In this document: piece after piece, positions 22,341 to 54,637 of the stretch
Layout of the letters: every line of letters begins with the position of its first letter
How positions within the stretch are numbered: position 1 is the first letter of the stretch
Assembly: GCA_965279515.1 (NCBI GenBank)
Contig: CBDIID010000003.1
Span: 3,712,001 to 3,776,000, forward strand
From: Turneriella sp.
Lineage (GTDB): Bacteria > Spirochaetota > Leptospiria > Turneriellales > Turneriellaceae
DNA: 64,000 nucleotides
Direction of reading: 5' to 3'
Notes under the pieces: generated by a model
The model's input: only the letters and a program-made list of their open reading frames with translations
The model's database searches: none
Told to the model about the DNA's origin: nothing
Translations under genes and position numbers: made by a program

Positions 22341-22365
22341 GTGTTACTTATGTCGTGATAGTACC
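22341..22365 (-). mobile_element. Isolated terminal remnant of the IS481-family element
   Basis: GTGTTACTTATGTCGTGATAGTACC matches the terminal 25 bp of the three full IS copies with one mismatch. Confidence 0.85.
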
Positions 22366-22778
22366 CATCTTAATGGCGGCCAACGTGGATTTTACGCTGA
22401 CGTTTTTTGACGCTTGTGTCATTTATTCAATCTGTAAAGCCGATTTGCGTCAAAAAATGTGGTCGTAGCGGCTCGCGGCGACGCGCGAAAACACACCTCC
22501 CGGTGTGCGCGTCGTCCGCGATCTTTGCCGCGGAGACCCGAGCACGCGAGGAGCTACTGCACCGCAGCGGCGCAGCGCGTAAAATTTGTTGTCTGAAGTA
22601 ATTGCGCCTGTGAGCCCGGGCAAGGAGGCCCGGGCGAATAAAGGATAAGAGATTTTTCCATAAGAGGCCATCGGTTATCTTAACTTGCTACTTTTTGAAG
22701 TTAAACAGACTTTACACCTCGGATATCGTAGTTTTTGATGATTCTCTCGGTATAATTTCTTAGATAAGAATTGAATCC

Positions 22779-23255
22779 ATGGAAATTCCGGTTTTTCTGC
22801 CACTACCGAAAGGCATCACAGGTTTTTCGAACGCAGGCGAGCCTTTCGTAGGCTCTTTGGATAACAAATTCGTAAAATCCCTTGCCTTCTCCATAGATTA
22901 CTCCCAGCATTATAAGCTCTTTGATTTCAAGATGCCTCAGATCAGTGCTAATTATTTCAGGTTAACAATAGAGGATGGTCGGACAAATGATGTTTTCTCA
23001 ATTCTTATCAATGCTCACTATCCTTTTTATGCAGCTGTTACCAAGGAAAGTCAATGGATGAACTTGGTATTTATTGAAGCGCCAACTGCGATTCAAAATC
23101 TTTTCGCACCTCATTTTCAGTATCTTAGTCCCAAAGATTTGGGTCAAATTGTGCAGCCTGAACAGCTTATTTTATTAGGGGAATCAGAGCTGCAGCAAAT
23201 TACCAGTTGGAAGTCGGAACGCATTGGCGACATTGTTTTTAATGGATATGATTAA
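22779..23255 (+). CDS. Hypothetical cassette protein
   Basis: 158-aa ORF filling a cassette. Confidence 0.7.
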   Translation: MEIPVFLPLPKGITGFSNAGEPFVGSLDNKFVKSLAFSIDYSQHYKLFDFKMPQISANYFRLTIEDGRTNDVFSILINAHYPFYAAVTKESQWMNLVFIEAPTAIQNLFAPHFQYLSPKDLGQIVQPEQLILLGESELQQITSWKSERIGDIVFNGYD

Positions 23256-23530
23256 TCGGCCAATGCCGGTCATAGCGTCGGCATGGATGCCGACGGGATA
23301 CAAAGGCGCAATTATTTCAGACAACGTGGAAAATACCCGAATTGCGCCCCCGCGGGTGTAAAGTGTAAATAATCACGGCTTTATGTGACTTTCGCGGGAG
23401 CGCATTTGCCCGAAGCGCCTCGCGGCAAAGCACAGAACAAGCGTCCCGCTTGTGCTTTGTCCGCGATCTTTGGCGCGCAGGGCCGAGCACGCGAGCCAAC
23501 GAAGTGCTCGCGGCGCAGCGGGTATTTTTT

Positions 23531-23724
23531 GTTAGCCGCCGTTACCGGATTCGCGCGGCTGGCGAGCAACCCGAAGGTCAGCGAGATACTGTAGTTCGAT
23601 ATTATTAGTAACCGAGGAGTTGTCGCCAGGATCAAAGGCGTAAGCAGCGAAATCTGGTTGTACTCTCTGATAACAAATCCTCTTTTTCTCCCCTTCGGGC
23701 GCGAAGGAGGTAATGGTGGCTAAC
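23531..23724. repeat. Gene-less cassette, copy 1
   Basis: GTTAGCCGCCGTTACC...GGTAATGGTGGCTAAC, ~194 bp, seven near-identical copies. Confidence 0.85.
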
Positions 23725-23927
23725 GTGGAAAATACCCGAATTGCGCCCGCGCGGGTGTAAAGTGTAAATAATCACGGTTTTATGCGACTTTCGTGGGAGC
23801 GCATTTGCCCGTAGCGCCTCGCGAGCCCGCCAATGCAGGCCCACTGGCCTGCGGGCGTAGCGATCTTCGGCGCGTAGGGCCGAGCACGCGACCCAGCGTA
23901 GCGGTCGCGGCGCAGCGGGTATTTTTT

Positions 23928-24121
23928 GTTAGCCGCCGTTACCGGATTCGCGCGGCTGGCGAACAACCCGAAGGTCAGCTATATACTGTATTTCGATCTT
24001 ATTAGTCACCGAGGAGTTGTCGCCAGGATCAAAGGCGTAAGCAGCGAAATCTGGCTGTATTTTCTGATAAAAAATCCTCTTTTTCTCCCCTTCGGGCGCG
24101 AAGGAGGTAATGGTGGCTAAC
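23928..24121. repeat. Gene-less cassette, copy 2
   Basis: Near-identical to 23531-23724. Confidence 0.85.
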
Positions 24122-24545
24122 GTGGATTTTACGCTGACGTTTTTTGACGCTTGTGTCTTTTATTCATTCTGTAAAGCCGATTTGCGTCAAAAAATGTGGT
24201 CGTAGCGGCTCGCGGCGGCGCGCGAAAACACACCTCCCGGTGTGCGCGTCGTCCGCGATCTTTGCCGCGCAGACCCGAGCACGCGAGGAGCTACGGCACC
24301 GCAGCGGCGCAGCGCGTAAAATTTGTTGTCTGACGTAGTTGCGCCTGTGAGCCCGGCATGGAGGCCGGGCGACTGCAGAAGAAGGCTGCCCAAAAAAATT
24401 CTGTTTGTCCCATGAAGAACAGGATTCACGCCTGAGACGGACAGTTGCTTCATTAGTTAAACGCGGCGCCAATTTCTTGGATGCTAAATGAACTAGTATC
24501 TCACCGCTTTCGGAAATATGTCATGCCGTTTTTTTGGCATAGGGA

Positions 24546-25085
24546 ATGGCAGTAATTCGTACAGTAAGGGCCATGGAAAGTAGAGTTAGAGTATTCTACA
24601 TCCGAAAAATGGCGATGAGGACATTTTTTATATATAGCCTCATCATTGCCTCGCGGCAAATCAGCGCTACTGGGGAGGGGATCGCTGGTATTACAACCGT
24701 TAATGCCGGTATAGAATTTCACACAGGCAAGTTAGGTCCGGTACCAACGGTCGGTCTGCTGGCGGGTTTCTACTCAATTGTCAGCGCGCACGTACATGCA
24801 AATTTATCCTACCGCCCCGCTGACGAAACTTGGCATACACGAGGTGGGTTTGGATTCGGCATTTTGAATTTCTTACTAAATCTGGACCTGACGTACCAAG
24901 CCGGTAATCAATCCTCCGCCGGATTTCTCTTTGGGGGATCCCTTTTTTGGGGGCTTCAGAGATTACATGATTTGCAAACTTTAGTCGAGGTGTTTTATGG
25001 CTATCAAACTAATTTTGCGGCAAGTACCGAGAATAGCTTGATCGGCGGTTTAAAAATTCATCTGAACCTTGGAAAGAAAATTTGA
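24546..25085 (+). CDS. Hypothetical beta-barrel-like exported protein
   Basis: 179-aa ORF with alternating hydrophobic strands. Start uncertain. Confidence 0.5.
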   Translation: MAVIRTVRAMESRVRVFYIRKMAMRTFFIYSLIIASRQISATGEGIAGITTVNAGIEFHTGKLGPVPTVGLLAGFYSIVSAHVHANLSYRPADETWHTRGGFGFGILNFLLNLDLTYQAGNQSSAGFLFGGSLFWGLQRLHDLQTLVEVFYGYQTNFAASTENSLIGGLKIHLNLGKKI

Positions 25086-25198
25086 TAACCATCCCGTGGG
25101 TTGATAATAGTTTCAACTAAACCGTGGCGAATAGCAATTTCTTAGATGTCAAAATTGATCTTTCGTGCACCTAGCAGCGTCTAATACAAAACAACACT

Positions 25199-25456
25199 AT
25201 GCGAAAATTCATAACGCCGCTATGTCTCATCTGTAGTATCGCCTTACTCGGCGACCTTGCTCACGCAAAACAAAGCAAGGGTGGATTGTGGGCTGGGCCT
25301 GAGACCTTACCGCCGGATCCTAAAAGGAAAAAGCCCGGAGAAGAATGCAAAGCCTCCGATGAATGCCAGCTCCATCATGAATGCAAGCAACAAGGCGATA
25401 AGGGTGTCTGCACCCCACCGCCGCCCTCAAGAATTCCACCCGGTGCCGTAACGTAG
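25199..25456 (+). CDS. Small secreted Cys-rich protein
   Basis: Signal peptide followed by GEECKASDECQLHHEC...GVC disulfide-rich motif. Confidence 0.65.
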   Translation: MRKFITPLCLICSIALLGDLAHAKQSKGGLWAGPETLPPDPKRKKPGEECKASDECQLHHECKQQGDKGVCTPPPPSRIPPGAVT

Positions 25457-26236
25457 CCCGCCGGGCAGCGCGGCCCGGATATTCGCGATAGCATCGCCGG
25501 GATTCTCAAAAAACGTGCGCGTCACGCCATGGATTCGGGTATTGAGGCAAGTAGCGAAGCTATAAAAAACTGCTTCGAAAGCGTTTCTTTGTATGACATG
25601 CTGCCGACCCGGATTTATCACCGGGCCCGCGATGACGCTTGTTTCGGGCTGAAACAGTTTTTTTCTGCGCCGCCTACCGGTTTTGGGCGAAGGTTTCAAA
25701 AGCAGTTCTCTAACTTGCGGTTTCTGCCACCTGATTACGGCGGGTACGCGGGCAGGTTAGCAGACAAGCAGACCTTTCAGGTCTATCTGCGTTCGGTTGG
25801 AATGAATACAGCCCTTTAAAGCCATAAATATCCATAAAGAGTCGTTTTTGCCCATGAAAACAGGATTTACGCCTGAAAAGGTCCGTAGCCTAATCGTCGA
25901 AATGAGTATCAATTTCTTAGATACTTGGTCGCATTTAGTAGCTGGCGCCCGCATGGACGCGGGCGGGAAAAAACAGCGCAACTATGTCAGACAACGTGGA
26001 ATTTACACGAGGTCGATGGTGCGTCGCACAATAAAATTAGGCTTACTTGAAAAGCCGAGTATTAAGCACCATCGATCTGCCGAAGACCGCTCGTTGCGCC
26101 TGACCAAACAAACGTCCCGTTTGTCAGGCGTCAACGATCTTTGCGGTCGAGGCCGAGCACGCGAGGAGCCACGGCACCGCAGCGAGCGCAGCGTGTAAGT
26201 TTTGTTGTGCGACGTTGCCCCGCTGGAAAAAAATGC

Positions 26237-26596
26237 TCAAGCGTTTGCCGGTAGAACGGCTAATGTCGGAGCAGAGTAAATTGAGATAAATATGGCGTCT
26301 TCCGAAAAATCATTTATCGCGCCATGGACTTCGTCTTGTTCAGCAACCGCTATTTGCCCGGCAGAAATTATTGATTTCATTTGATTGCCGCGGAAATAGG
26401 TTAGCTGACCTTTAACCACAAGCCATGTATCTTGGCCGTCGGGATGGGTATGTACGGGAACTTCTTGCCCCGCTTTAACGCCCCAAATCGCCAAACTATT
26501 GGTTTTCGTAGTAGAAATGACGGTTACCGTCGCCTTGTCCTCTGAAAACCGTACCAATGCGGCCGTATTAAACAATCTAATTGCTTCTTTGCTCAT
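26237..26596 (-). CDS. Cupin-domain protein
   Basis: GQEVPVHTHPDGQD...EVHG cupin motifs. Confidence 0.85.
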   Translation of the reverse strand: MSKEAIRLFNTAALVRFSEDKATVTVISTTKTNSLAIWGVKAGQEVPVHTHPDGQDTWLVVKGQLTYFRGNQMKSIISAGQIAVAEQDEVHGAINDFSEDAIFISIYSAPTLAVLPANA

Positions 26597-26938
26597 GTGC
26601 CATTCGTCGCGGATGAAAGCATAATCTTACGGCAAACGCGCACGGAAATATATTCCGGGGCAATGTTCGCACAACGCGGGTTTTACGAGATTTGCGCCTC
26701 GCGGGTGTAAAGTGCTTTCAACGTGGAATTTACCTGAGGTTGAATGACGCTTCGTTCAACTTTGTGTTTTGTAAGGCCATGTTGCGTCACTCAATCTGCC
26801 CGAAGCGCCTCGCGGCAAAGCACAAACCAAGCGTCCCGCTTGTGCTTTGTCCGCGATCTTCTGGCGCGTAGGGCCGAGCACGCGAGGAGCCACGGCACCG
26901 GAGCGGCGCAGCAGGTAAATTTTGTTGTACGACGTTGT

Positions 26939-27610
26939 CTATAGGGCGGCCCATGGTTCCTGAAGCTGATTAACTTTGATAAGCTCGGTAAATGCTTTGG
27001 TATAATCTTTGAAAAGGCCGTTATGAGGAAAATCTTGCAGACTCAGATGGAAGCCAGTACCTGATTTGTACGCCCATTTTCTCAGCTTATAGAATGCTTG
27101 GGCGGCCTTAAAATTATTGAGTATTTTTTGGAAAACAAAGTTCTTCGTTTCTTCCATATCAAACATATCTTCTGCAAATGCGAGTATGACAAAGGCAGAC
27201 AATGGTTGCTTTTCGGTTTTTGATGAAGAACTAGGATTTAGAAAGTTCCAATAGAAAATCGGCGGATTCTCAGTTTCTGAACAGGTTTCCCAATGCGGCG
27301 CCCAAAGTTCCAAATGGCCAAAGCGTGAGTTAGCTGGATTTTCAGGTTTCGCGGGGGTGCCATAGGCCCATTTCAGAATGGATTTCTCGCTCAAATTTAA
27401 ACGACCCAAACCTTTCACTTTGGAATATTGGCCGTTCTTTACATACTCATAGGCCCTGATACCAAATGTCTGCTTCTTCAAAAGTAAAAACTCGTTGATT
27501 GCCGCCGCCACCGGACTTATGGCACGATAGTGCCATGGCATATTGTCGCCAGTTCTAATGAATATCGAATAAGTGTGATAGCTTCGGGTCCAAAAATTAA
27601 TCATAGACAA
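26939..27610 (-). CDS. Hypothetical cassette protein
   Basis: ORF starts within the cassette's GTT arm and stops within the opposite arm, a tight cassette fit. Confidence 0.75.
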   Translation of the reverse strand: MSMINFWTRSYHTYSIFIRTGDNMPWHYRAISPVAAAINEFLLLKKQTFGIRAYEYVKNGQYSKVKGLGRLNLSEKSILKWAYGTPAKPENPANSRFGHLELWAPHWETCSETENPPIFYWNFLNPSSSSKTEKQPLSAFVILAFAEDMFDMEETKNFVFQKILNNFKAAQAFYKLRKWAYKSGTGFHLSLQDFPHNGLFKDYTKAFTELIKVNQLQEPWAAL

Positions 27611-27845
27611 TGTCGTACAACGTGGAATTTACCTGAGGTTGAGTGACGCTTCGTTCAACTTTGTATTCTGTAAAGCCATTTTTGCGTCACTCAATCTGCC
27701 CGAAGCGCCTCGCGGCAAAGCACAAAACAAGCGTCCCGCTTGTGCTTTGTCCGCGATTTTTGGCGCGTAGGGCCGAGCACGCGAGGAGCTACGGCACCGC
27801 AGCGGCGCAGCAGGTAAATTTTGTTGGGCGAAGTAGCCTTTTCGG

Positions 27846-28487
27846 TTAAAGAGCTTTGCCAACAATGTAAGTGTCAATATCTACCTCTAGATTGAGCTTT
27901 GCCATACGATTGATTGTCTGAATATCAAAATGAATACCCGCATTGGCGCTTAGTGCCTGATGTCTGCATATTGAAATTTCTACCTCTGCCATCTTCGTTA
28001 AAGACAGAATATTTTCAGCATCTTTTTCAATCTCGTCTAATACTTTGCTTAATAGCGGCTTTAAGTCATAAGCCTCACTGTCTACAAATTCATAGCTTAC
28101 CAGACTAAATGTACGAGCTTTTCCGGTCCTTGGTTGCAAATCACCCTTTGACCAACCATCATGAGGCTTGAGCTTCGTAAACTTCGCAAGTTCAGCATAA
28201 GTGTGATTTTCTGAGATTACGTTCAAAGAACACTTGTGGCCGTTTTCGATCATGATCCAGGAGATCTCCAAAGATTCTTTTCGAACAAACACGACAAAGA
28301 AGAATCGTTCATCTAAAACACGAAAATAGACCGCCACACGGTCGGCTTCAGTTTCTTCATCAACCCTCTCAACTTCATAACCCAAGTCACCTTCAACCAG
28401 CTCCATAACAGACAAATACTGTTCTGTAAGTGCAAATGTCGGGTTCTTAATTTCTTCTACTGCTTTCTGAATGTATTTTTCTGACAT
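27846..28487 (-). CDS. DUF4279-like protein
   Basis: C-terminal GIHFDIQTINRMAKLNLEVDIDTY typical of this family (recognised from memory). Confidence 0.6.
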   Translation of the reverse strand: MSEKYIQKAVEEIKNPTFALTEQYLSVMELVEGDLGYEVERVDEETEADRVAVYFRVLDERFFFVVFVRKESLEISWIMIENGHKCSLNVISENHTYAELAKFTKLKPHDGWSKGDLQPRTGKARTFSLVSYEFVDSEAYDLKPLLSKVLDEIEKDAENILSLTKMAEVEISICRHQALSANAGIHFDIQTINRMAKLNLEVDIDTYIVGKAL

Positions 28488-28502
28488 AAAAAATATCTTA
28501 AG

Positions 28503-29837
28503 GGTACAATATCAGAACATCGGTAACGAAAAGTCATCACGACATCGGTAACAGTTCTGCCTCAGGCTTTGCCGTGGTTTCCTCCTGATTTGGTGTAAAC
28601 AAATAATTGTTCCGATCGATGTAGCCCAATAGCAGGCTACCGAAGTAGACGTCGATGCGCATGTCGGCGATAAACCGGAGCCCGATCGGGTAGCCGTTAA
28701 AAGAATTGCCGATAAATATCCGGTGCTGCTTGTAGTTGGTGTAACCGCGGTCATTTACGATGCGTACGATGCAATCCTCAGGGTAGGCGGGTAGTACGTC
28801 GCCAGTATACGGAATTTCAGATGGTAGGTAGAACTCTGATGGCGTCCTCATGCCCAGGGCTTCATGCGGTCGCACATTGTTGAAGTCTTCGCGCCACTGA
28901 TCAAACGAAATCTGGTGAAGCTTTAGATCACCGCGAATGCGCCCCTGCAGTTCCGTGCGGATGTCTCTGTGCATACGCTCATGGCCACCATTCTGGGCTG
29001 GCTTTCCCGGATCAATGCGGTCCAGAGAAATTCCCAAGGACAGCCACCAGACTGACAATTTTGTCAGGCCAAAGAGGCCCCACGATGATGCGAAAGGAGT
29101 TCCGTTGTCAGAGCGAATAATTTCCGGCAGACCATAGCGTTTGAAGAGTCTGGCAAAGTGTTGTTTTACATTGGAAATATTGCCCTTTTCCAGTATCTGT
29201 ATCGACAGGATGTACTTACTGTACTCATCGCGAACTGTCAGAGGTTCGCATTTCTCTGCATGTGCAGTATACCACCACCCCTTGAAATCAACCGTCCATA
29301 TGTGATTGGGATGCGTCGCCTTTTCGCGAAGCATCAGCCTCTCTCCGGTTCTGCGGCGCTTCTTTCCTCTTGGCCTTGTCAGACCAGAGCGCGCCAGAAG
29401 GCGATCGACTGTAGGCACTGAAATATCGCCTTTGCGCTCGGGGTAAAGCCTGCAGAAGACCGCATAGATCTTCTTGGCTCCCCAGCGAGGCCTGTTATTC
29501 TTTATGCGAATAATGTCGCAGATTGTTTCTTCGTCAGTGCGGTTCGGATTGCCTCCTGGTTTTCGTGACAACTCCGCCAATCCAGCTAAGCCTTTTTCCA
29601 GAAACCTTGCCTTCCACTTGTACCCTGTCTTGGTGCTGATGCCAAACTCGCGGCACAGCTCTGTGAAACTCTCTACGCCCTCCAGGGCGCGAAAGACAAA
29701 AGATCTTTTCTCTTCCATTTTGGTAACCTCTTTCCACGGCATTTGAGCCCCCTGCCGAAGGCAGGCAAAAGCTCTTTGCGAAGCAAAGTGTTACCGATGT
29801 CTTGATAGAAATGTGTTACCTATGTCGTGATAGTACC
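28503..29837 (-). mobile_element. IS481-family element, copy 1 (1335 bp)
   Basis: Imperfect terminal IRs GGTAC...ACAT(C)GGTAAC, duplicated target TAAG. Confidence 0.92.
28537..29742 (-). CDS. IS481-family DDE transposase
   Basis: MPWKE N-terminus, HTH (ELCREFGISTKTGYKW), WTVDFKG, IRSDNG, QNGGHERMHR, RPHEALG. Confidence 0.93.
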   Translation of the reverse strand: MPWKEVTKMEEKRSFVFRALEGVESFTELCREFGISTKTGYKWKARFLEKGLAGLAELSRKPGGNPNRTDEETICDIIRIKNNRPRWGAKKIYAVFCRLYPERKGDISVPTVDRLLARSGLTRPRGKKRRRTGERLMLREKATHPNHIWTVDFKGWWYTAHAEKCEPLTVRDEYSKYILSIQILEKGNISNVKQHFARLFKRYGLPEIIRSDNGTPFASSWGLFGLTKLSVWWLSLGISLDRIDPGKPAQNGGHERMHRDIRTELQGRIRGDLKLHQISFDQWREDFNNVRPHEALGMRTPSEFYLPSEIPYTGDVLPAYPEDCIVRIVNDRGYTNYKQHRIFIGNSFNGYPIGLRFIADMRIDVYFGSLLLGYIDRNNYLFTPNQEETTAKPEAELLPMS

Positions 29838-30153
29838 TAAGGCTATTTCGCCCAACGTGGATTTTAGGCTGACGTTTTTTGACGCTTGTGTCATTTATTC
29901 AATCTGTAAAGCCGATTTGCGTCAAAAAATGTGGTCGTAGCGGCTCGCGGCGACGCGCGAAAACACACCTCCCGGTGTGCGCGTCGTCCGCGATCTTTGT
30001 CGCGGAGACCCGAGCACGCGAGGAGCTACGGCACCGCAGCGAGCGCAGCGCGTAAAATTTGTTGTCTGAAGTAATTGCGCCTGTGAGCGCGGCTAGGAGG
30101 GCCGCGCGAATTCTGAGTTTAATTGCCTATTACTGGTCATTTCGCGTCGGCAT

Positions 30154-34794: not shown

Positions 34795-36576
34795 TCACCT
34801 TGGGTTAATTAACAGGTGTTGAACCGGCATAAGGCAAAGCCTAAGTGTCAACCACCAAGTAAAGAGACTTGCTGTTGAAAACATCTGCCAATCACTCAGC
34901 AGACCGTGAGCTAACATATTGCGGAGATTACTACCAACCTGCTCGGTGAGGAGACCCTGCATCGTAAATATGATATCTTCATCAAATATGGTGGCTAATT
35001 CAGGTTTATATAGTAATGTGTTGAGGTCATACTCTTTCTGTAGAGAAGTTGATGAAACGGAGGAAGGTATGTTCCCGGCCTGTTCATAAATTTGGCGAAC
35101 GCTATTCTCTAGTTGTGGTATCAGTAAATGTATGCTGGTCATATAATCCCCGTGTAGACCCGCGTTTAGCCCCTTCGCGTAAGCTAAGATTCGCGCCTCG
35201 GGCACAAACGGATTATCGTACAAGAATGGATAAAAATCTCGTTCGGTAAAGCTATGTTCCACATTCGTTTGGTATCTTGCCGGTTCTATGAGTCCCTGCG
35301 TCAGGAGCTGATGCTCCATAATCAAACTCTTAAACATCTCTGCTTTGATCGCTGTTTCCTTTTCTGTGACGTCATCTGTCATGATCGAAGGTTTTTTCGC
35401 GATGACTTTGCCATTTTCATTCAAGACCGCCGAGTTAAATAGGTGAAAGAGAATACTTTGAGACTTTTGGTCTTCAACACGCTTTCTAATGCTACTTACT
35501 TTAGGGATATCGGTTATGAACGCGACGAAAAATAGCACATCCTTTTTCTCTCGCCCACTAATGTGAGAAATTGTTGAGTCTACAAAGCGGGTCAGGTCAA
35601 CGCTAGAGGAGAATTTTCCGAATTCACTCGTCGATCGCTTTTGATACGTAAGGAGCAATGCGTGAACTCTGTCGATATCACTCTTGCGGGCTGGAATTTT
35701 TCTATAAGCGTCTATGGCTCGCAACAGGAAATCAGATGCGGCAAAATAGCTTGGCTTCGCCCGTTTAGTACATTCCTCTGCTTCTAATTCGTACCCCTGA
35801 GCGATGGCCTCGTATGCGTTATTCACCTCTATATCGTTGCCACTTTTCCGAAAGGCTTTAATGGCATGTTCCCAATAAATCCGGGCGGCGTACATATCCT
35901 TGGCGGCTTGGAAGCGTTGAGCGTGCGCCTTTGCCGAATTGGCTAATTGAACCTTGTCAGTTTGGCTCTGGGCGAATAGAATTTCGATAACAGCGGCGGA
36001 TAGAAAAAGCGGATCATTATTCTGATACTTGCTCAGGACGGATTGTGCATATTGAATGATTCTATCGGTGTACGTTAAATCTTTTCCTTTGTATTTTGAC
36101 AATTGCAGGGCACGGCGCAAATTATTGATATACTCCGGCCACTTATTCACATCCTCTATTGATTGGGCCAAGCCAAGATACGCATCTATTGCCTGACCCA
36201 AAAGCTGATGGCGACGACGACCCACCCAAAGCAGATCACACATCCGGGCTACAATAGCCGGGTCCTCGACTTTCTGAGCAATAATCTCAAAATTCGCATA
36301 ATGATTATCATTGAAATCTTCCAAGGCCGCCGTTCTACCATGGACAAACTGAGCAAGCGGAGCAAAGATTTCCGGCTTGTCGCTGTTCATAGAAAGCGAG
36401 CAGGCAGCAGAGAGTAATAACCAAGCCCCTGCCGAAGCGGGATCCTCATTCGATTTATTGCGGAAAAGTGTGCTCAAATCCTGGGCGCTTCTATGGTTTG
36501 TGGTTTTGAGTAGATCATCAATATTTAGTTTTTCAATATCTGCCTCTGAAAATTTCTGTATCTCGCTCAGTTCCAT
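34795..36576 (-). CDS. DUF4209-like protein with C-terminal HEPN motif
   Basis: RBS AGAGGA. C-terminal HLLIPQLENSVR...GSNLRNMLAHGL (R-N-x3-H). Confidence 0.75.
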   Translation of the reverse strand: MELSEIQKFSEADIEKLNIDDLLKTTNHRSAQDLSTLFRNKSNEDPASAGAWLLLSAACSLSMNSDKPEIFAPLAQFVHGRTAALEDFNDNHYANFEIIAQKVEDPAIVARMCDLLWVGRRRHQLLGQAIDAYLGLAQSIEDVNKWPEYINNLRRALQLSKYKGKDLTYTDRIIQYAQSVLSKYQNNDPLFLSAAVIEILFAQSQTDKVQLANSAKAHAQRFQAAKDMYAARIYWEHAIKAFRKSGNDIEVNNAYEAIAQGYELEAEECTKRAKPSYFAASDFLLRAIDAYRKIPARKSDIDRVHALLLTYQKRSTSEFGKFSSSVDLTRFVDSTISHISGREKKDVLFFVAFITDIPKVSSIRKRVEDQKSQSILFHLFNSAVLNENGKVIAKKPSIMTDDVTEKETAIKAEMFKSLIMEHQLLTQGLIEPARYQTNVEHSFTERDFYPFLYDNPFVPEARILAYAKGLNAGLHGDYMTSIHLLIPQLENSVRQIYEQAGNIPSSVSSTSLQKEYDLNTLLYKPELATIFDEDIIFTMQGLLTEQVGSNLRNMLAHGLLSDWQMFSTASLFTWWLTLRLCLMPVQHLLINPR

Positions 36577-36938
36577 AATACCTCTTGCCAAATGGCCGAC
36601 AACGTGGAAAATACCCGAATTGCGCCCTCGCGGGTGTAAAGTGCAAATAAACACGGTTTATGTGACTTTCGCGGGAGCGCATTTGCCCGTAGCGATCTTC
36701 GGCGCGTAGGGCCGAGCACGCGACCCAACGTAGTGGTCGCGGCGCAGCGGGTATTTTTTGTTAGCCGCCGTTGCCGGATTCGCGCGGCTGGCGAGCAACC
36801 CGAAGGTCAGCGATATGCTGTAGTTCGATATTATTAGTAACCGAGGAGTTGTCGCCAGGATCAAAGGCGTAAGCAGCAAGAGCCGGCTGTACTCTCTGAC
36901 AACAAATCCTCTTCTTCTCCCCTTCGGGCGCGAAGGAG

Positions 36939-38273
36939 GGTACAATATCAGAACATCGGTAACGAAAAGTCATCACGACATCGGTAACAGTTCTGCCTCA
37001 GGCTTTGCCGTGGTTTCCTCCTGATTTGGTGTAAACAAATAATTGTTCCGATCGATGTAGCCCAATAGCAGGCTACCGAAGTAGACGTCGATGCGCATGT
37101 CGGCGATAAACCGGAGCCCGATCGGGTAGCCGTTAAAAGAATTGCCGATAAATATCCGGTGCTGCTTGTAGTTGGTGTAACCGCGGTCATTTACGATGCG
37201 TACGATGCAATCCTCAGGGTAGGCGGGTAGTACGTCGCCAGTATACGGAATTTCAGATGGTAGGTAGAACTCTGATGGCGTCCTCATGCCCAGGGCTTCA
37301 TGCGGTCGCACATTGTTGAAGTCTTCGCGCCACTGATCAAACGAAATCTGGTGAAGCTTTAGATCACCGCGAATGCGCCCCTGCAGTTCCGTGCGGATGT
37401 CTCTGTGCATACGCTCATGGCCACCATTCTGGGCTGGCTTTCCCGGATCAATGCGGTCCAGAGAAATTCCCAAGGACAGCCACCAGACTGACAATTTTGT
37501 CAGGCCAAAGAGTCCCCACGATGATGCGAAAGGAGTTCCGTTGTCAGAGCGAATAATTTCCGGCAGACCATAGCGTTTGAAGAGTCTGGCAAAGTGTTGT
37601 TTTACATTGGAAATATTGCCCTTTTCCAGTATCTGTATCGACAGGATGTACTTACTGTACTCATCGCGAACTGTCAGAGGTTCGCATTTCTCTGCATGTG
37701 CAGTATACCACCACCCCTTGAAATCAACCGTCCATATGTGATTGGGATGCGTCGCCTTTTCGCGAAGCATCAGCCTCTCTCCGGTTCTGCGGCGCTTCTT
37801 TCCTCTTGGCCTTGTCAGACCAGAGCGCGCCAGAAGGCGATCGACTGTAGGCACTGAAATATCGCCTTTGCGCTCGGGGTAAAGCCTGCAGAAGACCGCA
37901 TAGATCTTCTTGGCTCCCCAGCGAGGCCTGTTATTCTTTATGCGAATAATGTCGCAGATTGTCTCTTCATCAGTGCGGTTCGGATTGCCTCCTGGTTTTC
38001 GTGACAACTCCGCCAATCCAGCTAAGCCTTTTTCCAGAAACCTTGCCTTCCACTTGTACCCTGTCTTGGTGCTGATGCCAAACTCGCGGCACAGCTCTGT
38101 GAAACTCTCTACGCCCTCCAGGGCGCGAAAGACAAAAGATCTTTTCTCTTCCATTTTGGTAACCTCTTTCCACGGCATTTGAGCCCCCTGCCGAAGGCAG
38201 GCAAAAGCTCTTTGCGAAGCAAAGTGTTACCGATGTCTTGATAGAAATGTGTTACCTATGTCGTGATAGTACC
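36939..38273 (-). mobile_element. IS481-family element, copy 2 (1335 bp)
   Basis: Near-identical to copy 1, duplicated target GAG. Confidence 0.92.
36973..38178 (-). CDS. IS481-family DDE transposase
   Basis: Protein identical to 28537-29742. Confidence 0.93.
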   Translation of the reverse strand: MPWKEVTKMEEKRSFVFRALEGVESFTELCREFGISTKTGYKWKARFLEKGLAGLAELSRKPGGNPNRTDEETICDIIRIKNNRPRWGAKKIYAVFCRLYPERKGDISVPTVDRLLARSGLTRPRGKKRRRTGERLMLREKATHPNHIWTVDFKGWWYTAHAEKCEPLTVRDEYSKYILSIQILEKGNISNVKQHFARLFKRYGLPEIIRSDNGTPFASSWGLFGLTKLSVWWLSLGISLDRIDPGKPAQNGGHERMHRDIRTELQGRIRGDLKLHQISFDQWREDFNNVRPHEALGMRTPSEFYLPSEIPYTGDVLPAYPEDCIVRIVNDRGYTNYKQHRIFIGNSFNGYPIGLRFIADMRIDVYFGSLLLGYIDRNNYLFTPNQEETTAKPEAELLPMS

Positions 38274-38656
38274 GAGGTAATGGTGGCTAACGTGGAATTT
38301 ACAAGACGTTGATGGTGCGCCACACAATAATTGCAGGCTTATTTGGAAAGCCGCGTATCAAGCACCATCAATGTGTCGTAGGCGGCTGCGTTGCGCCTGA
38401 CCAAACAAACGCCCCGTTTGTCAGGCGTCAACGCATTTCAGGCCGCCGGAGACCGAGCACGCGAGGAGCTACGGCACCGCAGCGAGCGCAGCTTGTAAAT
38501 TTTGTTGTCTGAAGTAATTGCGCCTGTGAGCCCGGCTAGGAGGGCCGGGCGAACCCTTAGTGCGACTGCTCATAACTGGTCATTTTGTCACTTCCAGAAA
38601 CAGGTTTTACACCTGAGAGATTCGGGGTATCTTAGGTCTTAATGGGGAGCAAGTTC

Positions 38657-42495: not shown

Positions 42496-42500
42496 TCTCC

Positions 42501-43412: not shown

Positions 43413-43431
43413 TGTATGTACATTGTACATA
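43413..43431. promoter_or_regulatory. Palindromic operator upstream of BrnTA
   Basis: TATGTACA-T-TGTACATA inverted repeat immediately before the toxin start. Confidence 0.55.
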
Positions 43432-45052: not shown

Positions 45053-45075
45053 AGTCTATTGGATAGAAGCTCCGA

Positions 45076-48312: not shown

Positions 48313-48738
48313 ATGATCGGTAGTTGCCTATGCGGCGAAATTGAGTTCAAATTAGAGAATAAGCAGTATAAGCTATACCAGTGCCATTGCTCACTATGCA
48401 GAAAGCAAAGTGGCGGCCCAGCCAATGCAGCAACTTTGGTGCTTGAGAATAAGTTCTCCTGGCAAAAAGGGAAAGAACACATTCGGTCTTATGTCAAAGC
48501 AACAGGCTTTAGATCTGATTTCTGTTCTAAGTGCGGCTCACCAGTTCCAAATAGGATCGGAAATACCGACTATATGTGGATACCTGCTGGGCTGCTGAAA
48601 ACCTCTGATAAATTTGAAATTGTTGCCCATTTATTTATCGGGTCAAAGGCGGCATGGGACTCGGCGCCCACTCATGGAGAAATCTTTGAGACTGGTCCAG
48701 GAGTTGAAGGTCTATTCAGGTTACTCGAAGGAGTGTAA
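48313..48738 (+). CDS. GFA (CENP-V/Mss4-like) family protein
   Basis: GSCLCG, CHCSLCRK, FCSKCGS. Confidence 0.92.
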   Translation: MIGSCLCGEIEFKLENKQYKLYQCHCSLCRKQSGGPANAATLVLENKFSWQKGKEHIRSYVKATGFRSDFCSKCGSPVPNRIGNTDYMWIPAGLLKTSDKFEIVAHLFIGSKAAWDSAPTHGEIFETGPGVEGLFRLLEGV

Positions 48739-49119
48739 TCTGCGATGTATGCACCGCCATGGATGGCGGTGGAGGAACACCTGCTTTCCAACAATTGCCG
48801 ACAACGTGGATTTTACGCTGACGTTTTTTGACGCTTGTGTCATTTAATCAATTTGTAAAGCCGATTTGCGTCAAAAAATGTGGTCGTAGCGGCTCGCGGC
48901 GACGCGCGAAAACACACCTCCCGGTGTGCGCGTCGTCCGCGATCTTTGCCGCGGAGACCCGAGCACGCGACCCAACGAAGTGGTCGCGGCGCAGCGCGTA
49001 AAATTTGTTCTCTGACGTAGTTGTGCCTGTGAGCCCGGGCATGGATGGCCGGGCGAATATGTATCAGACTCCTATAAATTCTTGACAGGCTCAAACAATT
49101 CATCAGTCTCTTGTCCGAT

Positions 49120-49380
49120 ATGAATGCAGAAACGATTCCGGCACATGCATATATTTCAAGTTCCCCAGAGATTTGTGGGGGAGAGCCAGTAATTTCTGGG
49201 ACACGAATGACAGTAAGAGCAGTGGTTCAGTATGTTTTGATTCAAGGTCTTACCCCCGAGGAGCTAGAACGGGAGTTTAAACAACTAAGTCTTTCACAAA
49301 TTTATGATGCTCTGTCTTATTACTATGACCACAAAAGCATAATCGACAAGTTTATAGCCGAGAACTCGGCCAAGAATTGA
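49120..49380 (+). CDS. DUF433 antitoxin
   Basis: PEICGGEPVISGTR...IYDALSYYYDH. Confidence 0.9.
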   Translation: MNAETIPAHAYISSSPEICGGEPVISGTRMTVRAVVQYVLIQGLTPEELEREFKQLSLSQIYDALSYYYDHKSIIDKFIAENSAKN

Positions 49381-49718
49381 CCCCAATTAAGCTATATCTA
49401 GATGAAGACGTAAGACCTCTTCTGGCAGAAATTCTTACTGAGCGCGGTTTTGAAGCCACCCACACGCTGTTTCATGGGAATTCTGGGAAAACGGATTTGC
49501 AACAGCTGGAATTCGCTGCTCAAAATCAGCTTACTCTACTTACGCACAATATTCGCGACTTTGCCAATCTACATACTGTCTTTCTTAACGGAGACAAAAA
49601 ACACTTCGGAATTATTTGCGCACCGCAATTGAAATTGCCATTACTAGTCTCGCGCACGTTAGTCTTGCTTTCATCAGTCAATAAAGATTCTGCACGTAAT
49701 AATCTCCTCTGGATTTAG
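49377..49718 (+). CDS. DUF5615 PIN-like toxin
   Basis: LYLDEDV...TDLQQL...LLTHNIRDF...HFGII. Confidence 0.88.
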   Translation: MTPIKLYLDEDVRPLLAEILTERGFEATHTLFHGNSGKTDLQQLEFAAQNQLTLLTHNIRDFANLHTVFLNGDKKHFGIICAPQLKLPLLVSRTLVLLSSVNKDSARNNLLWI

Positions 49719-50024
49719 GGAGCATCCTGCGAGTTGCGCCGCCATGGAGGGCGGCGGAGTAAAGGGCACAACTATGTCAGAGAACGTTGGATTTTACGCT
49801 GACGTTTTTTGACGCCTGTGTCATTTATTCAATTTGTAAAGCCGATTTGCGTCAAAAAATGTGGTCGTAGCGGCTCGCGGCGACGCGCGAAAACACACCT
49901 CCCGGTGTGCGCGTCGTCCGCGATCTTTGCCGCGAAGACCCGAGCACGCGAGGAGCTACGGCACCGCAGCGGCGCAGCGCGTAAAATTTGTTGTCGGCAG
50001 TAAATCGCTGGATACAATTCTGCT

Positions 50025-50053
50025 TGACGCTGTACTATTATTTTAGTACGGTC
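50025..50053 (+). promoter_or_regulatory. Promoter with overlapping palindromic operator for the RelE/HTH TA pair
   Basis: TTGACG-17 bp-TACGGT containing the inverted repeat GTACTA...TAGTAC. Confidence 0.6.
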
Positions 50054-50057
50054 AGCC

Positions 50058-50453
50058 GTGGAGTATATTGCCTATAAAGGCACTGCATTTACGATAGAAT
50101 GGTACTTTGATGAAGGATTGGAAAGCCAAGCCCTGACATATTTTGAGAATTTATCTCCCCAGCAGCAAGATAAATTGCTGTATTTATTCAAGAGAATGGG
50201 AGATTTTGGAAAAATCTCGGACATCACCAAGTTTAGATTTGAGGAAGATAAAATCTATGCTTTTAAACCTCAACCAGATCGATTTCTTTGCTTTTTCTAT
50301 GCTGGTAAGAAGATTATTGTTACAAATGCCTTTTATAAGAAAACTGATAAACTACCGAAGAGCGAGAAATTGGCTGCTCTAAAGCATAAAGATGATTATG
50401 AGTTACGGGTAAAAAAGGGAGAATACTATGAAGAATACTATGAAGAAGACTAG
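50058..50453 (+). CDS. RelE/ParE (Gp49/HigB-like) toxin
   Basis: IYAFKPQPDRFLCFF...IIVTNAFYKKTDKLP..E. Confidence 0.85.
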   Translation: MEYIAYKGTAFTIEWYFDEGLESQALTYFENLSPQQQDKLLYLFKRMGDFGKISDITKFRFEEDKIYAFKPQPDRFLCFFYAGKKIIVTNAFYKKTDKLPKSEKLAALKHKDDYELRVKKGEYYEEYYEED

Positions 50454-50724
50454 TACTTTTGATCGAATTATGTCGAATAAAGATCGGAAAAAGCAATTTG
50501 ACAGTGGCTATACTGACTTTTTGCTTTCTGAATTTCTGCATGAGGCTATGGCCGAAAGACATCTGTCAGTGAGGAAGCTTTCGGAAAAAGCTCATGTGTC
50601 ACCAGCCATGATTCAGAATCTGAGATCTGGTAAAACGCAGAATATTAGCCTTAAGAAATTGAGTGCTATTTCCAATGTCTTAGGTTATGAAATAAGGCTT
50701 CAGAAGCTCGCAACGCGAGCATAA
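50428..50724 (+). CDS. XRE-family HTH antitoxin (HigA-like)
   Basis: LSVRKLSEKAHVSPAMIQNLRSG HTH, downstream of the toxin. Confidence 0.85.
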   Translation: MKNTMKKTSTFDRIMSNKDRKKQFDSGYTDFLLSEFLHEAMAERHLSVRKLSEKAHVSPAMIQNLRSGKTQNISLKKLSAISNVLGYEIRLQKLATRA

Positions 50725-51174
50725 TCATATCGATTTATTGCCGACAACGCGGGTTTTACCTTGACGTTTTTGCTTGTGGCGTCTTCGTCACAAGCAAAAA
50801 TGTGCCCGGAGCGCCTGCCCGAGCCCGCCAATGCAGGCCCACTGGCCGGCGGGCGCAGGGCATCTTTGGCGCGGAGTGGCCGAGCACGCGACCCAACGGA
50901 GTGGTCGCGCGCGCAGCAGGTAAAACTTGTTGTCTGAAGTAATTGCGCCTGTGAGCGCGGCCAGGAGGGCCGCGCGAAATCCAATCTCAGCTACCCATAA
51001 TTTGTCATTTTGTTGCCTCAAGAACAGGCTTTACGCCTGAGAAATCCGGGGCTCCGGAGGTCTTTGTCGGGAATAGATTCTTATGTAGTAAAGGACGCGG
51101 CAGCAGCACAGTTAAGATCGACGAACCTGCCACAATTATGAAAGTATCCACAGATTTCTCACTGGAGGCAATTA

Positions 51175-51597
51175 ATGCAAAAAATATTTCTGATAGGTTT
51201 ATTACAATTGAGCTTTGGAGCCGGATGCGTTCTATTTGCCGTTGAGAAAAAAATAAAAGTGCAGAACGGGGAAATCGAAATTCTTGGAGAAAAAATTCCG
51301 GTATATGGCAAGGCCGAAGAAGTTACAGTGACCTATAACGACGGTGACGGGGCCCGATCTCTACAAGTTGAGTATTACTTTCCAGGAAAGTCGACAGAAA
51401 AGGTTCTCAAGGACGTGGCTGCCTTCTACACCGGCAAAAGTATTTTTGGCACGAAAGTTGGAAAATTCAAGAAGAACAAATCGAACGGCGGGGCATATAA
51501 TTTTGAAAATTGCTCAAATAAGCCTGAGCTGTTGATCGTGATCTACGCCAATGAAACCCCTGGCCATGTGTACATTGGCGACATGTGTTTGCCTTGA
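51175..51597 (+). CDS. Putative lipoprotein
   Basis: RBS GGAGG, lipobox-like GAGC. Confidence 0.65.
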   Translation: MQKIFLIGLLQLSFGAGCVLFAVEKKIKVQNGEIEILGEKIPVYGKAEEVTVTYNDGDGARSLQVEYYFPGKSTEKVLKDVAAFYTGKSIFGTKVGKFKKNKSNGGAYNFENCSNKPELLIVIYANETPGHVYIGDMCLP

Positions 51598-52398
51598 GGT
51601 CAACATAGGTCTGGCACAGCTGATTGTTGCCGGGCGCGGGGGACTATTCTGCGCATCCGTAAGCACCATTCGTACATTCTGGCTTCGCCAGCGCCCTCAG
51701 GTATGATATTGCAAATTCTCAATCCGTTTGAGAGTTGAAATCGTAGCCCTGCGATCTTGCCCCCCGGACCAAATGATACAAAGATACTTTGCACGTTCGA
51801 TGCACCTGTCATTTCGCAGGCCTTTCCCAAGACAATATAGCCCTTTAATGGGTTAACTGCCCATAAGGCGTCATTGTGTCTCCTGATAACAGGCTCTACA
51901 CCTGAGAGATTATGGGGCCTGTAGGTCCCAGGATAAGTAATTTCTTATTCACTTAACTTCAAGCTCGTTGCCGCGCCGACACGAAGTCGGCGCGTAACAA
52001 AGGCGCAATTATTTCAGACAACGTGGATTTTACGCTGACGTTTTTTGACGCTTGTGTCATTTATTCAATCTGTAAAGCCGAATTGCGTCAAAAAATGTGG
52101 TCGTAGCGGCTCGCGGCGACGCGCGAAAACACACCTCCCGGTGTGCGCGTCGTCCGCGATCTTTGCCGCGAAGACCCGAGCACGCGAGGAGCTACGGCAC
52201 CGCAGCGGCGCAGCGCGTAAAATTTGTTGTCTGAGGTAATTGCGCCTGCGAGCACGGGCAAGGAGGCCCGTGCGACAAGAATCAGATGCTCATAAGTGTA
52301 TTGCCTGCTGGCGAATAAGATTCGCCAAAAAAAATGAAGAAAGTTATTACTCTGGACAGCCTCTCGCCAGAATAAAACTTTAAGGTCGCCAATTTCAG

Positions 52399-52833
52399 AT
52401 GCGCATCGCTTTAAATTTACAGTTAAATAAATATGCTCAAGGGCTTATTGATATATCTGCATTTCTATCAAAGATTAGCGGCTATGGTCCCGCTGAAAAG
52501 AGGGCTTTTATTAACGACTTAGTTGATTTAATAATTCAATCGAAACCCGAAGGTACTAACTTGCGAGAAATTCAAGAGATATTAGCTTTGAAAAAAACTC
52601 CAGCCATGGTCATTCTGCTTCAGGGTATTACGAAAGCAAATCTACAGAAGATTCTTGAATTTAATGATCAGGAGATGCAGGCTTCAATCAATACCTTGTT
52701 GGTTGTTTATAAAGATAGCTATATGCGCCGCTATTTAGCAGAGAAAAATTCCCCCGATAAGTGGTGGTATTGGGATTTAAGGGATGAGAAAAGGGAGGCT
52801 AGTATAAAGCGTCAGTTTTCTGATTATTTATGA
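52399..52833 (+). CDS. Hypothetical protein (DUF5958-like)
   Basis: LNKYAQGL...QSKP...KWWYWDL pattern. Confidence 0.55.
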   Translation: MRIALNLQLNKYAQGLIDISAFLSKISGYGPAEKRAFINDLVDLIIQSKPEGTNLREIQEILALKKTPAMVILLQGITKANLQKILEFNDQEMQASINTLLVVYKDSYMRRYLAEKNSPDKWWYWDLRDEKREASIKRQFSDYL

Positions 52834-52958
52834 TGAAGACTTGTATTTAAGGAATCAAATTTTGATTTCAGCCAGCCACAGGCGAGACAGAGATGACGGT
52901 TTGTCTTAAATCTTTATGCAATGCGTCGGCATGGATGCCGACGAAGCACAAAGGCGCA

Positions 52959-54293
52959 GGTTCAATATCAGAACATCGGTAACGAAAAGTCATCACGACA
53001 TCGGTAACAGTTCTGCCTCAGGCTTTGCCGTGGTTTCCTCCTGATTTGGTGTAAACAAATAATTGTTCCGATCGATGTAGCCCAATAGCAGGCTACCGAA
53101 GTAGACGTCGATGCGCATGTCGGCGATAAACCGGAGCCCGATCGGGTAGCCGTTAAAAGAATTGCCGATAAATATCCGGTGCTGCTTGTAGTTGGTGTAA
53201 CCGCGGTCATTTACGATGCGTACGATGCAATCCTCAGGGTAGGCGGGTAGTACGTCGCCAGTATACGGAATTTCAGATGGTAGGTAGAACTCTGATGGCG
53301 TCCTCATGCCCAGGGCTTCATGCGGTCGCACATTGTTGAAGTCTTCGCGCCACTGATCAAACGAAATCTGGTGAAGCTTTAGATCACCGCGAATGCGCCC
53401 CTGCAGTTCCGTGCGGATGTCTCTGTGCATACGCTCATGGCCACCATTCTGGGCTGGCTTTCCCGGATCAATGCGGTCCAGAGAAATTCCCAAGGACAGC
53501 CACCAGACTGACAATTTTGTCAGGCCAAAGAGTCCCCACGATGATGCGAAAGGAGTTCCGTTGTCAGAGCGAATAATTTCCGGCAGACCATAGCGTTTGA
53601 AGAGTCTGGCAAAGTGTTGTTTTACATTGGAAATATTGCCCTTTTCCAGTATCTGTATCGACAGGATGTACTTACTGTACTCATCGCGAACTGTCAGAGG
53701 TTCGCATTTCTCTGCATGTGCAGTATACCACCACCCCTTGAAATCAACCGTCCATATGTGATTGGGATGCGTCGCCTTTTCGCGAAGCATCAGCCTCTCT
53801 CCGGTTCTGCGGCGCTTCTTTCCTCTTGGCCTTGTCAGACCAGAGCGCGCCAGAAGGCGATCGACTGTAGGCACTGAAATATCGCCTTTGCGCTCGGGGT
53901 AAAGCCTGCAGAAGACCGCATAGATCTTCTTGGCTCCCCAGCGAGGCCTGTTATTCTTTATGCGAATAATGTCGCAGATTGTTTCTTCGTCAGTGCGGTT
54001 CGGATTGCCTCCTGGTTTTCGTGACAACTCCGCCAATCCAGCTAAGCCTTTTTCCAGAAACCTTGCCTTCCACTTGTACCCTGTCTTGGTGCTGATACCA
54101 AACTCGCGGCACAGCTCTGTGAAACTCTCTACGCCCTCCAGGGCGCGAAAGACAAAAGATCTTTTCTCTTCCATTTTGGTAACCTCTTTCCACGGCATTT
54201 GAGCCCCCTGCCGAAGGCAGGCAAAAGCTCTTTGCGAAGCAAAGTGTTACCGATGTCTTGATAGAAATGTGTTACCTATGTCGTGATAGTACC
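52959..54293 (-). mobile_element. IS481-family element, copy 3 (1335 bp)
   Basis: Near-identical to the other copies; one end reads GGTTC; duplicated target CGCA. Confidence 0.92.
52993..54198 (-). CDS. IS481-family DDE transposase
   Basis: Protein identical to the other two copies. Confidence 0.93.
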   Translation of the reverse strand: MPWKEVTKMEEKRSFVFRALEGVESFTELCREFGISTKTGYKWKARFLEKGLAGLAELSRKPGGNPNRTDEETICDIIRIKNNRPRWGAKKIYAVFCRLYPERKGDISVPTVDRLLARSGLTRPRGKKRRRTGERLMLREKATHPNHIWTVDFKGWWYTAHAEKCEPLTVRDEYSKYILSIQILEKGNISNVKQHFARLFKRYGLPEIIRSDNGTPFASSWGLFGLTKLSVWWLSLGISLDRIDPGKPAQNGGHERMHRDIRTELQGRIRGDLKLHQISFDQWREDFNNVRPHEALGMRTPSEFYLPSEIPYTGDVLPAYPEDCIVRIVNDRGYTNYKQHRIFIGNSFNGYPIGLRFIADMRIDVYFGSLLLGYIDRNNYLFTPNQEETTAKPEAELLPMS

Positions 54294-54637
54294 CGCAATT
54301 ATCTCAGACAACGCGGAATTTACCTGACGTTTGGTGACACATGTGTCATTATTTTAATCAGGAAAGCCGTCTTGTGTCACCAAATGTGCCCGGAGCGCCT
54401 CGCGGCAAAGCACAAAACAAGCGTCCCGCTTGTGCTTTGTCCGCGATCTCCGGCGCGTAGGGCCGAGCACGCGAGGAGCCACGGCACCGCAGCGAGCGCA
54501 GCAGGTAAATTTTGTTGTCTGAAGTAATTGCGCCTGAGAGCACGGGCATGGAGGCCCGTGCGACAAAGATTAAATTGTCATAACAGCGGAATCTCTACTT
54601 TTCGCGGACAAAGATTTTGCAGGAAATTAGAGGTATT

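Follow-up and report, generated by a model that had tools for sequence, protein, structure and literature searches.

An IS481-like insertion sequence that homes to a fixed position beside attC-like sites in Turneriella sp., and a clade of relatives with the same habit

The DNA considered here is a stretch of 64,000 nt from Turneriella sp. (assembly GCA_965279515.1, contig CBDIID010000003.1, positions 3,712,001 to 3,776,000), referred to below as the window; the contig is abbreviated C3 and the genome G000. It contains three full copies of an insertion sequence (IS) of 1335 bp, which carries one gene, on the window minus strand, for an IS481-like DDE transposase of 401 amino acids (aa). The element homes in a site- and orientation-specific manner to the 5′ side of gene cassettes, with its end 15 or 16 nt ahead of the AAC of an attC-like site, and this behaviour is shared by a clade of related elements. 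Homing of this kind has been described before; within the literature that was searched, what is new is the class of enzyme, the offset beyond the site and the range of hosts.

The three copies are 99.8–100% identical, and each terminates in ...GTGTTACCTATGTCGTGATAGTACC. Their positions, and those of a remnant of the transposase-proximal (right) end and of the adjoining attC-like sites, are given below in window coordinates, with target-site duplications (TSDs).

28503 to 29837, minus strand: element copy 1 (1335 bp); TSD TAAG at 28499-28502 and 29838-29841
28537 to 29742, minus strand: transposase gene of copy 1 (401 aa; two helix-turn-helix (HTH) domains, RNase H-type DDE core, C-terminal beta-barrel)
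29850 to 30067, no strand assigned: attC-like site, 16 nt after copy 1; AAC at 29854-29856, GTT at 30061-30063
36939 to 38273, minus strand: element copy 2; TSD GAG at 36936-38 and 38274-76
36973 to 38178, minus strand: transposase gene of copy 2, the only long open reading frame (ORF) of the element
38285 to 38510, no strand assigned: attC-like site, 15 nt after copy 2; AAC at 38289-38291, GTT at 38504-38506
52959 to 54293, minus strand: element copy 3; TSD CGCA at 52955-58 and 54294-97
52993 to 54198, minus strand: transposase gene of copy 3
54306 to 54520, no strand assigned: attC-like site, 16 nt after copy 3; AAC at 54310-54312, GTT at 54514-54516
22336 to 22365, minus strand: right-end remnant of 30 nt at the array distal end; AAC 16 nt further on
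22378 to 22594, no strand assigned: attC-like site beside the remnant; cores GGCCAAC at 22378-22384 and GTTGTCT at 22588-22594

A preliminary description of the window, made from its sequence alone, had reported the three copies and the remnant in a single orientation, and a repeat search confirmed this. The distances to the AAC that it gave, 16, 15 and 16 nt for copies 1, 2 and 3 and 16 nt for the remnant, were obtained here as well, and TAAG, GAG and CGCA proved to be flanking direct duplications. The remnant is present and ends where it was said to end, but it starts at 22336 rather than at 22341.

The same arrangement was observed throughout the genome. Two arrays of attC-like cores are found on C3, array A with 67 cores at 93.0–170.3 kb and array B, to which the window belongs, with 49 cores at 3734.4–3803.2 kb; the median core-to-core spacing is ~930–980 bp. 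A BLAST search of the genome with the element returned eight hits, which lie exclusively in these arrays and on one strand (the contig plus strand for the element sequence). Searches with the end sequence added two remnants, the one in the window and another near C3:159.29 kb, where 17 nt of the right end (~159,283-159,299) lie within array A, 16 nt ahead of an AAC core. There are thus ten right ends, belonging to seven intact copies, one truncated copy and two remnants, all in one orientation; nine of the ten lie 15–16 nt ahead of an AAC core, and ~9 of the 116 cores are occupied. By our own arithmetic, which takes ~116 cores, a contig of 4.84 Mb and at least five independent insertions, ~232 of ~9.7 million position-orientations would be permitted, or ~2e-5 per random insertion. 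Chance is therefore excluded as the source of the offset and the orientation.

The intact copies in the genome are 0–12 substitutions apart, which indicates recent activity. Empty paralogous sites are available for four copies, and comparison with such sites shows that TGCG was duplicated at C3 position 156640, GGAG at 143089 and GAG at 3748939 (window copy 2). The last two insertions struck one and the same multi-copy, ORF-less cassette family, of which the host of copy 2, with its known empty sites, is a member. Five distinct TSDs of 3–4 bp (TGCG, GGAG, GAG, TAAG and CGCA) occur in the genome. Since the TSDs differ and were verified against the empty-site paralogues, the copies represent independent transpositions, and the earlier contention that they do not descend from a single duplicated insertion is upheld.

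The attC-like sites are long inverted repeats in which AAC...GTT spans 207–218 nt, and they fold much more strongly than shuffled sequences on either strand (z = -8.3). The usual length of an attC site is ~57–141 nt. AAC and GTT are invariant, the heptamers take forms such as GGCTAAC/GTTAGCC and AGACAAC/GTTGTCT, and the L stems measure 6–10 bp, all as expected of attC boxes; the layout is that of the aadA1 attC of plasmid R100, which served as a control. A TG bulge adjoins the crossover core, and in the R100 control the crossover-side spacer is likewise the longer one (6 vs 5 nt). The L stem offered no base that could be assigned as extrahelical. At the 107 unoccupied cores a block from -9 to +3 is conserved (AT-KK-C-R-S-M-C-AAC-G), with AT at -9/-8 in 95 of the 107, and the sequence is variable further out. 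Because the duplicated bases occupy -16/-15 to -13, the cuts fall just outside this block. The part of array B within the window, and the gene at its border, are as follows.

22378 to 64000, minus strand (cassette polarity): array B, 36 attC-like cores in the window, continuing to C3:3,803 kb
20136 to 21980, minus strand: ilvD, chromosomal gene at the array distal border, next to the 30-nt remnant

The polarity of the arrays was deduced from duplicated cassettes. The 915 nt to the left of the copy at C3:156640 recur with 100% identity in a stretch that ends at 108799. This unit starts exactly at a core, and its homology crosses the insertion point and halts at the next AAC-G. In a ten-copy alignment of the ORF-less cassette family, the sequences are divergent up to AAC, 92–100% conserved through the site body, GTTAGCC and ~170 nt of content as far as GGCTAAC, and divergent again thereafter. 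Duplicated units thus break at the AAC core, which places the cassette boundary between G and TT (G/TT) of one core, where that of an integron cassette is found. The mobile unit reads C-site body-GTTRRRY-content-RYYYAA on the plus strand and the classical TTRRRY-content-attC-G on the minus strand. Given these boundaries, the top strand of the array is the window minus strand, and the AAC beside the element is therefore the complement of the G/TT crossover. The element is located 13–16 nt downstream of G/TT, in the 5′ leader of the next cassette, and is co-directional with the cassettes. Both its insertion at the cassette 5′ end and the shared direction of transposase and array, as put forward in the preliminary description, are borne out by the duplicated cassettes, which end exactly at the AAC core, and by the reading of the array on the transposase strand. 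The plus strand had been considered as the top strand on the basis of arm lengths and of the replication-orientation rule for Vibrio, and was dropped because the cassette duplications put the crossover at the left-hand core; the arm-length argument did not discriminate in the R100 control.

The element has GGTAC at both tips and two subterminal ACAT(A/C)GGTAAC repeats per end. Such imperfect inverted repeats, together with a TSD of 3–4 bp, are in keeping with the IS481 family, as is a transposase encoded by one ORF, with a DDE core of the rve type, an N-terminal HTH/leucine zipper and no frameshift of the IS3 type. Matches in Pfam were rve, rve_3, HTH_32, HTH_28 and LZ_Tnp_IS481, and D152, D212 and E255 are conserved across an alignment of 22 transposases. 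The AlphaFold2 model built on that alignment has the order HTH-HTH-RNase H-beta-barrel, with a mean pLDDT (predicted local distance difference test) of 78 and a well-predicted C-terminal beta-barrel, and its top PDB folds are TnsB of ShCAST, IstA, MuA and retroviral integrases. In NCBIfam the top family is IS481 (NF033577) at 209.8 bits, against 123 bits for IS3; ~40%-identity relatives on plasmids are annotated 'IS481 family transposase'. The assignment to IS481 made in the preliminary description therefore holds as to the nearest family, but the score lies slightly under the curated cut-off of 224 bits, and the term IS481-like is used here because the best family by far is one whose cut-off is not reached. 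Classic members of the family such as IS481 and IS1002 have the target NCTAGN and a 6-bp TSD. The present element is like them in its single ORF without frameshift, and differs in its TSD of 3–4 bp and in a C-terminal beta-barrel of ~100 aa beyond the family model. It has no accessory genes. A scan of copy 1 for promoters and terminators gave counts not above those of shuffled sequence, and no Rfam family matched between window positions 20000 and 64000.

Relatives of the element were sought in 41 genomes (40 relatives and G000), seven of which, G000 included, gave DNA matches. In the four other genomes in which the end is present (G003, G002, G029 and G024), the right end stands 15–16 nt from the AAC of a long attC-like site. 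The G003 and G002 relatives have 67% nucleotide identity to the element; G029 and G024 belong to two other families. A degenerate relative with a broken ORF (L014/L017, 67–70% nucleotide identity) separates ilvD from the last attC-like site at G002:C1:1.32 Mb. The 30-nt remnant occupies the same place in the window, so insertion there is either old or recurrent.

A protein search yielded >7000 homologues, and 160 loci were fetched, 80 of them on genome contigs and the other 80 on metagenome contigs. Adjacency to attC was scored by a proxy, namely AACG 25–32 nt past the last subterminal repeat, which is expected at ~3% of loci by chance. Among the 160 loci, 30 were flagged and 79 rejected. Once 14 rows with broken or short ORFs had been removed, 120 distinct proteins were available for phylogenetic analysis. 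In the FastTree phylogeny, all 24 attC-adjacent rows fall in one clade of 38, together with two that are not adjacent and 12 that could not be classified; the sister clade of 82 rows contains no attC-adjacent member, 66 that are not adjacent and 16 unclassifiable. The split has a support of 99, and the minimum number of trait changes is three. The same split was recovered by IQ-TREE with 69 rows (Shimodaira–Hasegawa-like approximate likelihood ratio test, SH-aLRT, 99). The attC-adjacent loci come from Leptospira species, from metagenome-assembled genomes (MAGs) of other Spirochaetota and from metagenome contigs. The fixed position next to attC, proposed at the outset from four ends, is thus found at nine of ten right ends in this genome, in diverged relatives and in one transposase clade.

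In a sample of the phylum, 37 of 401 genomes matched at E <= 1e-80; within one family the figure was 30 of 75. Twenty further copies from 13 genomes were inspected, three of the copies repeating earlier loci, and 19 show AACG at 28–30 nt together with an attC-like partner. In each of two complete genomes, G337 and G349, four copies are found within ~80–90 kb on a single strand. Three Leptospira-type copies at G349:C1:2.375-2.405 Mb (L261–L263) have an identical 16-nt spacer and adjacent half attC-like site with different downstream contents, which gene conversion or a marked uniformity of cassette leaders might explain. Short tandem repeats of 6–8 nt (such as GGGAAC, TGGACC and GACTGAC) frequently adjoin sister-clade elements, just upstream of the transposase end (L060, L075, L085, L095, L104, L169 and L184); the repeat at L075 resembles the element's own tip.

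Recombinases that might act on the arrays were also sought. No protein of G000 matched the IntI model TIGR02249 above its cut-off, the best whole protein reaching 161 bits; no IntI was found in the 41 genomes at E <= 1e-40, and nine genomes with relatives of the element likewise gave nothing above the cut-off. At the ends of the G000 arrays the ORFs are unrelated, and no recombinase is among them. With no IntI beside them, the arrays are of the CALIN type (clusters of attC sites lacking integron integrases) and not complete integrons, and their sites are attC-like. Truncated copies of the element stand at the distal ends of both arrays, the flanks of two intact copies have been exchanged, and an integrase is lacking; this appearance agrees with rearrangement promoted by IS copies, which Cury et al. 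(PMC4889954) have proposed as an origin of CALINs. The nearest G000 protein to IntI is a XerA-like recombinase of 366 aa at C3:2926 kb, amid housekeeping genes and ~800 kb from the array, which aligns to VchIntIA (2a3v) in two separate stretches. It is 39% identical to XerA-like tyrosine recombinases of 351–374 aa that stand, co-directional, at the heads of arrays in two other genomes, as listed here.

L196, 1207-2262 (G041:C6): array-head XerA-like recombinase
L191, 1162-2223 (G041:C2): array-head XerA-like recombinase, second G041 array
L254 (G347): array-head XerA-like recombinase

These proteins score 238 bits with NF040815 and 212 bits with TIGR02249 (cut-off 265), and they are ~42 aa shorter at the position of the IntI-specific insert of VchIntIA. 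On these features they are possible non-classical cassette recombinases. An IS91-type element had been considered around the array-head recombinase of G041 and was rejected, as the neighbouring ORFs are not IS91 transposases.

Taken together, the results are best accounted for by an active IS481-like IS whose transposase measures from the crossover core and cuts at a fixed distance by direct read-out of double-stranded DNA, an explanation that we regard as probable, with moderate confidence. Under it, the transposase or the assembled complex would read the double-stranded core sequence directly. The comparisons show that staggered cuts of 3–4 bp are made 13–16 bp downstream of G/TT (window nucleotides -16 to -13 before AAC) and that insertion is always in the same orientation, the transposase-proximal end toward the site and the gene running with the cassettes. 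The spot may serve as a safe harbour in which cassette ORFs are spared, as had been suggested earlier; it would also put the element within the cassette boundaries, and resident copies could then provide homology for rearrangements. That near-identical copies exist in a genome without a canonical IntI favours recognition that is independent of IntI.

Several observations weigh against this account or limit it. The copy at the left margin of array A is truncated, 77 bp being missing from its start, and its right end, the tenth, directly adjoins the interior of a site. Two of the seven intact copies (C3:97813 and 136711) have no TSD, and the right flank of the latter is unlike that of its paralogue; exchange between copies may explain both. 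The classifier of the 160 loci is a proxy that left 51 of them unclassifiable, 22 rows had to be corrected by eye (three to positive, two to ambiguous and 17, from two MAGs, to negative), and a paired GTT partner with a stem of at least 8 bp accompanies only 11 of the 30 flagged loci. Exceptions within the attC clade are L130, which is basal, and L114, with a broken end or tip; L135 and L143, both left out of the tree, have no AACG, and L247, the exception among the 20 further copies, is a degenerate copy inside a site. A single residue (K176 vs R) is all that clearly distinguishes the two clades, attC and sister, and the determinant may therefore be the variable 12–14-nt tips of the element or a partner protein. 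Direct read-out of the core is something that we infer from sequence comparisons, and the sites are attC-like, their identity as classical integron attC sites being putative.

A partner protein is central to one alternative, in which the transposase docks on a tyrosine recombinase bound at the crossover core. The analogy is close to the IS1202 family, whose DDE elements have a TSD of 3–5 bp, extra end sites, one orientation and a fixed distance from their target (PMC10132070), and a tether would also agree with the absence of any clade-specific change in DNA binding by the transposase, with the XerA-like recombinases that head arrays in G041 and G347, and with the 39%-identical homologue within G000. 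That homologue, however, is the sole candidate in G000, is encoded far from the arrays among housekeeping genes, and is only a candidate binder of attC-like sites; canonical IntI is absent. We consider such a tether unlikely, though worth keeping in mind. Recognition of a folded hairpin or cruciform of the site rather than of its sequence, for instance on the lagging-strand template, appears to us quite improbable. Besides the strong folding of the sites, it would be favoured by the stem in G000, which reaches ~21 bp past the core and takes in the insertion point, and by the GC skew, according to which (origin near 2.78 Mb, terminus near 0.30 Mb) both arrays lie within one replichore and the crossover AAC is carried, in each of them, by the lagging-strand template. 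In the Leptospira-type sites, however, the paired stem extends only ~9 bp past the core, leaving the insertion point outside; the 3–4 bp TSD and the fixed orientation are what ordinary DDE integration into double-stranded DNA would be expected to produce; and the -9 to +3 block is common to site bodies that are otherwise very different.

Explanations that do without targeting by the transposase fare worse. Random insertion, with survival in neutral arrays and spread of copies by cassette duplication, could draw on the tolerance of arrays for insertions (IS are present in 23% of complete integrons; Cury et al., PMC4889954) and on the existence of multi-copy cassettes. An offset precise to 1 nt and a single orientation at nine of ten ends are beyond what selection would achieve, TSDs and flanks differ, empty sites are present, and the same offset is found again in other genera; this possibility is very improbable. 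The least probable of all is that the element moves by recombinase-mediated exchange between attC sites instead of transposition. Lying within cassette boundaries, it would be expected to travel with its cassette, but it is flanked by 3–4 bp TSDs, the 12-nt spacers and downstream contents differ, and the similarity of the four G349 copies stops at the distal end of the element instead of at a cassette boundary; nor does that comparison support hitch-hiking of the element with a cassette. Mimicry of the target by the element ends was also rejected: TAAC is common to both, but by eye the registers are 4–6 nt apart, and the end motif is shared by the sister clade.

The findings can be set in a wider frame, which we put forward tentatively and consider rather doubtful. 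The Spirochaetota may possess a non-classical cassette system of their own, with sites of ~90–220 nt and XerA-like recombinases without the IntI-specific domain, of which the IS481-like clade would be a dedicated parasite that recognises the recombinase-binding core. If so, the clade would be a second, independently evolved DDE hunter of recombination sites and would provide a handle on an undescribed cassette recombinase.

Elements of the IS1111-attC group generate no TSD. They belong to IS110/IS1111 (ISPst6, ISKpn4) and occupy one specific place, in one orientation, in cassette attC sites (PMC11187229), to which extent the present element resembles them. Their transposase is a DEDD enzyme guided by a seekRNA and inserts inside attC (PMC11187229), whereas the present element has an rve-type DDE transposase, for which Pfam and NCBIfam gave rve/DDE matches only and none of the DEDD (IS110) type, and inserts 13–16 bp outside the crossover core with a TSD of 3–4 bp. 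The dif and pdif hunters of the IS1202 family (ISAjo2 type) insert 5 bp from the XerC side of dif sites, and a tether to the recombinase has been proposed for them (PMC10132070). They share with the present element a DDE transposase of HTH-HTH-RNase H-beta-barrel order, extra transposase sites near the ends, a TSD of 3–5 bp, one orientation, a distance of a few fixed base pairs from a tyrosine-recombinase site and a lack of Tn7-like helpers; they differ in having TGT...ACA ends, a protein of 441–457 aa and dif as the target, as opposed to GGTAC, 401 aa and an attC-like core (PMC10132070). With ISNCY_2 the present transposase scores only 33 bits against a cut-off of 250, so that it is not an IS1202-family member, the similarity being confined to fold and domain order. 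Group IIC-attC introns offer another parallel, as a monophyletic sub-lineage of a class of mobile elements that homes to attC, but they are retroelements that enter the attC bottom strand and lie opposite to cassette transcription (PMC3001079), while the present element is co-directional and outside the site.

No IS481-type element that targets attC was found described in the literature searched; subscription journals lay mostly outside that search, and a prior description is possible. The relevant passages of PMC10232235, PMC9952335 and PMC3971601 mention IS481 in other contexts only, and those of PMC11089894 name IS1111 as the only attC-targeting group. As far as the pertinent part of PMC3607928 goes, Treponema was the only spirochaete clade found with integrons, and uncharacterised transposases of ~404 aa are recorded there in a T. 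succinifaciens array. No paper describing long attC-like arrays in Leptospira and its relatives was found, and the present results draw attention to them. Two mechanisms have so far been linked to attC homing, one based on group II introns and the other on DEDD enzymes guided by RNA; a plain DDE element would add a third, and the parallel with IS1202 and dif would suggest that the hunting of recombination sites is a recurrent strategy of DDE transposons. Such homing would also explain how large cassette arrays are invaded without loss of genes and later broken up. The system is tractable, in that the copies appear to be active, the target is a short conserved sequence and a sister clade without the habit exists, so that the specificity determinant should be mappable by swaps.

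Some further features of the cassettes were observed. The multi-copy cassette without an ORF, with ~170 nt of content and ending in ...GAAGGAGGTAATGGTGGCTAAC, is seen in the window at 24072-24120, 36880-36938 and 61056-61103; it occurs at least 12 times in C3 and was hit twice, independently, by the element. Cargo of other cassettes in the window is listed below.

54638 to 58045, minus strand: KAP-family P-loop NTPase of 1135 aa
30154 to 31137, minus strand: NAD-glycohydrolase translocation-domain protein
34795 to 36654, minus strand: DUF7380/DUF4209 protein

Many small overlapping pairs of ORFs in the cassettes resemble toxin-antitoxin modules.

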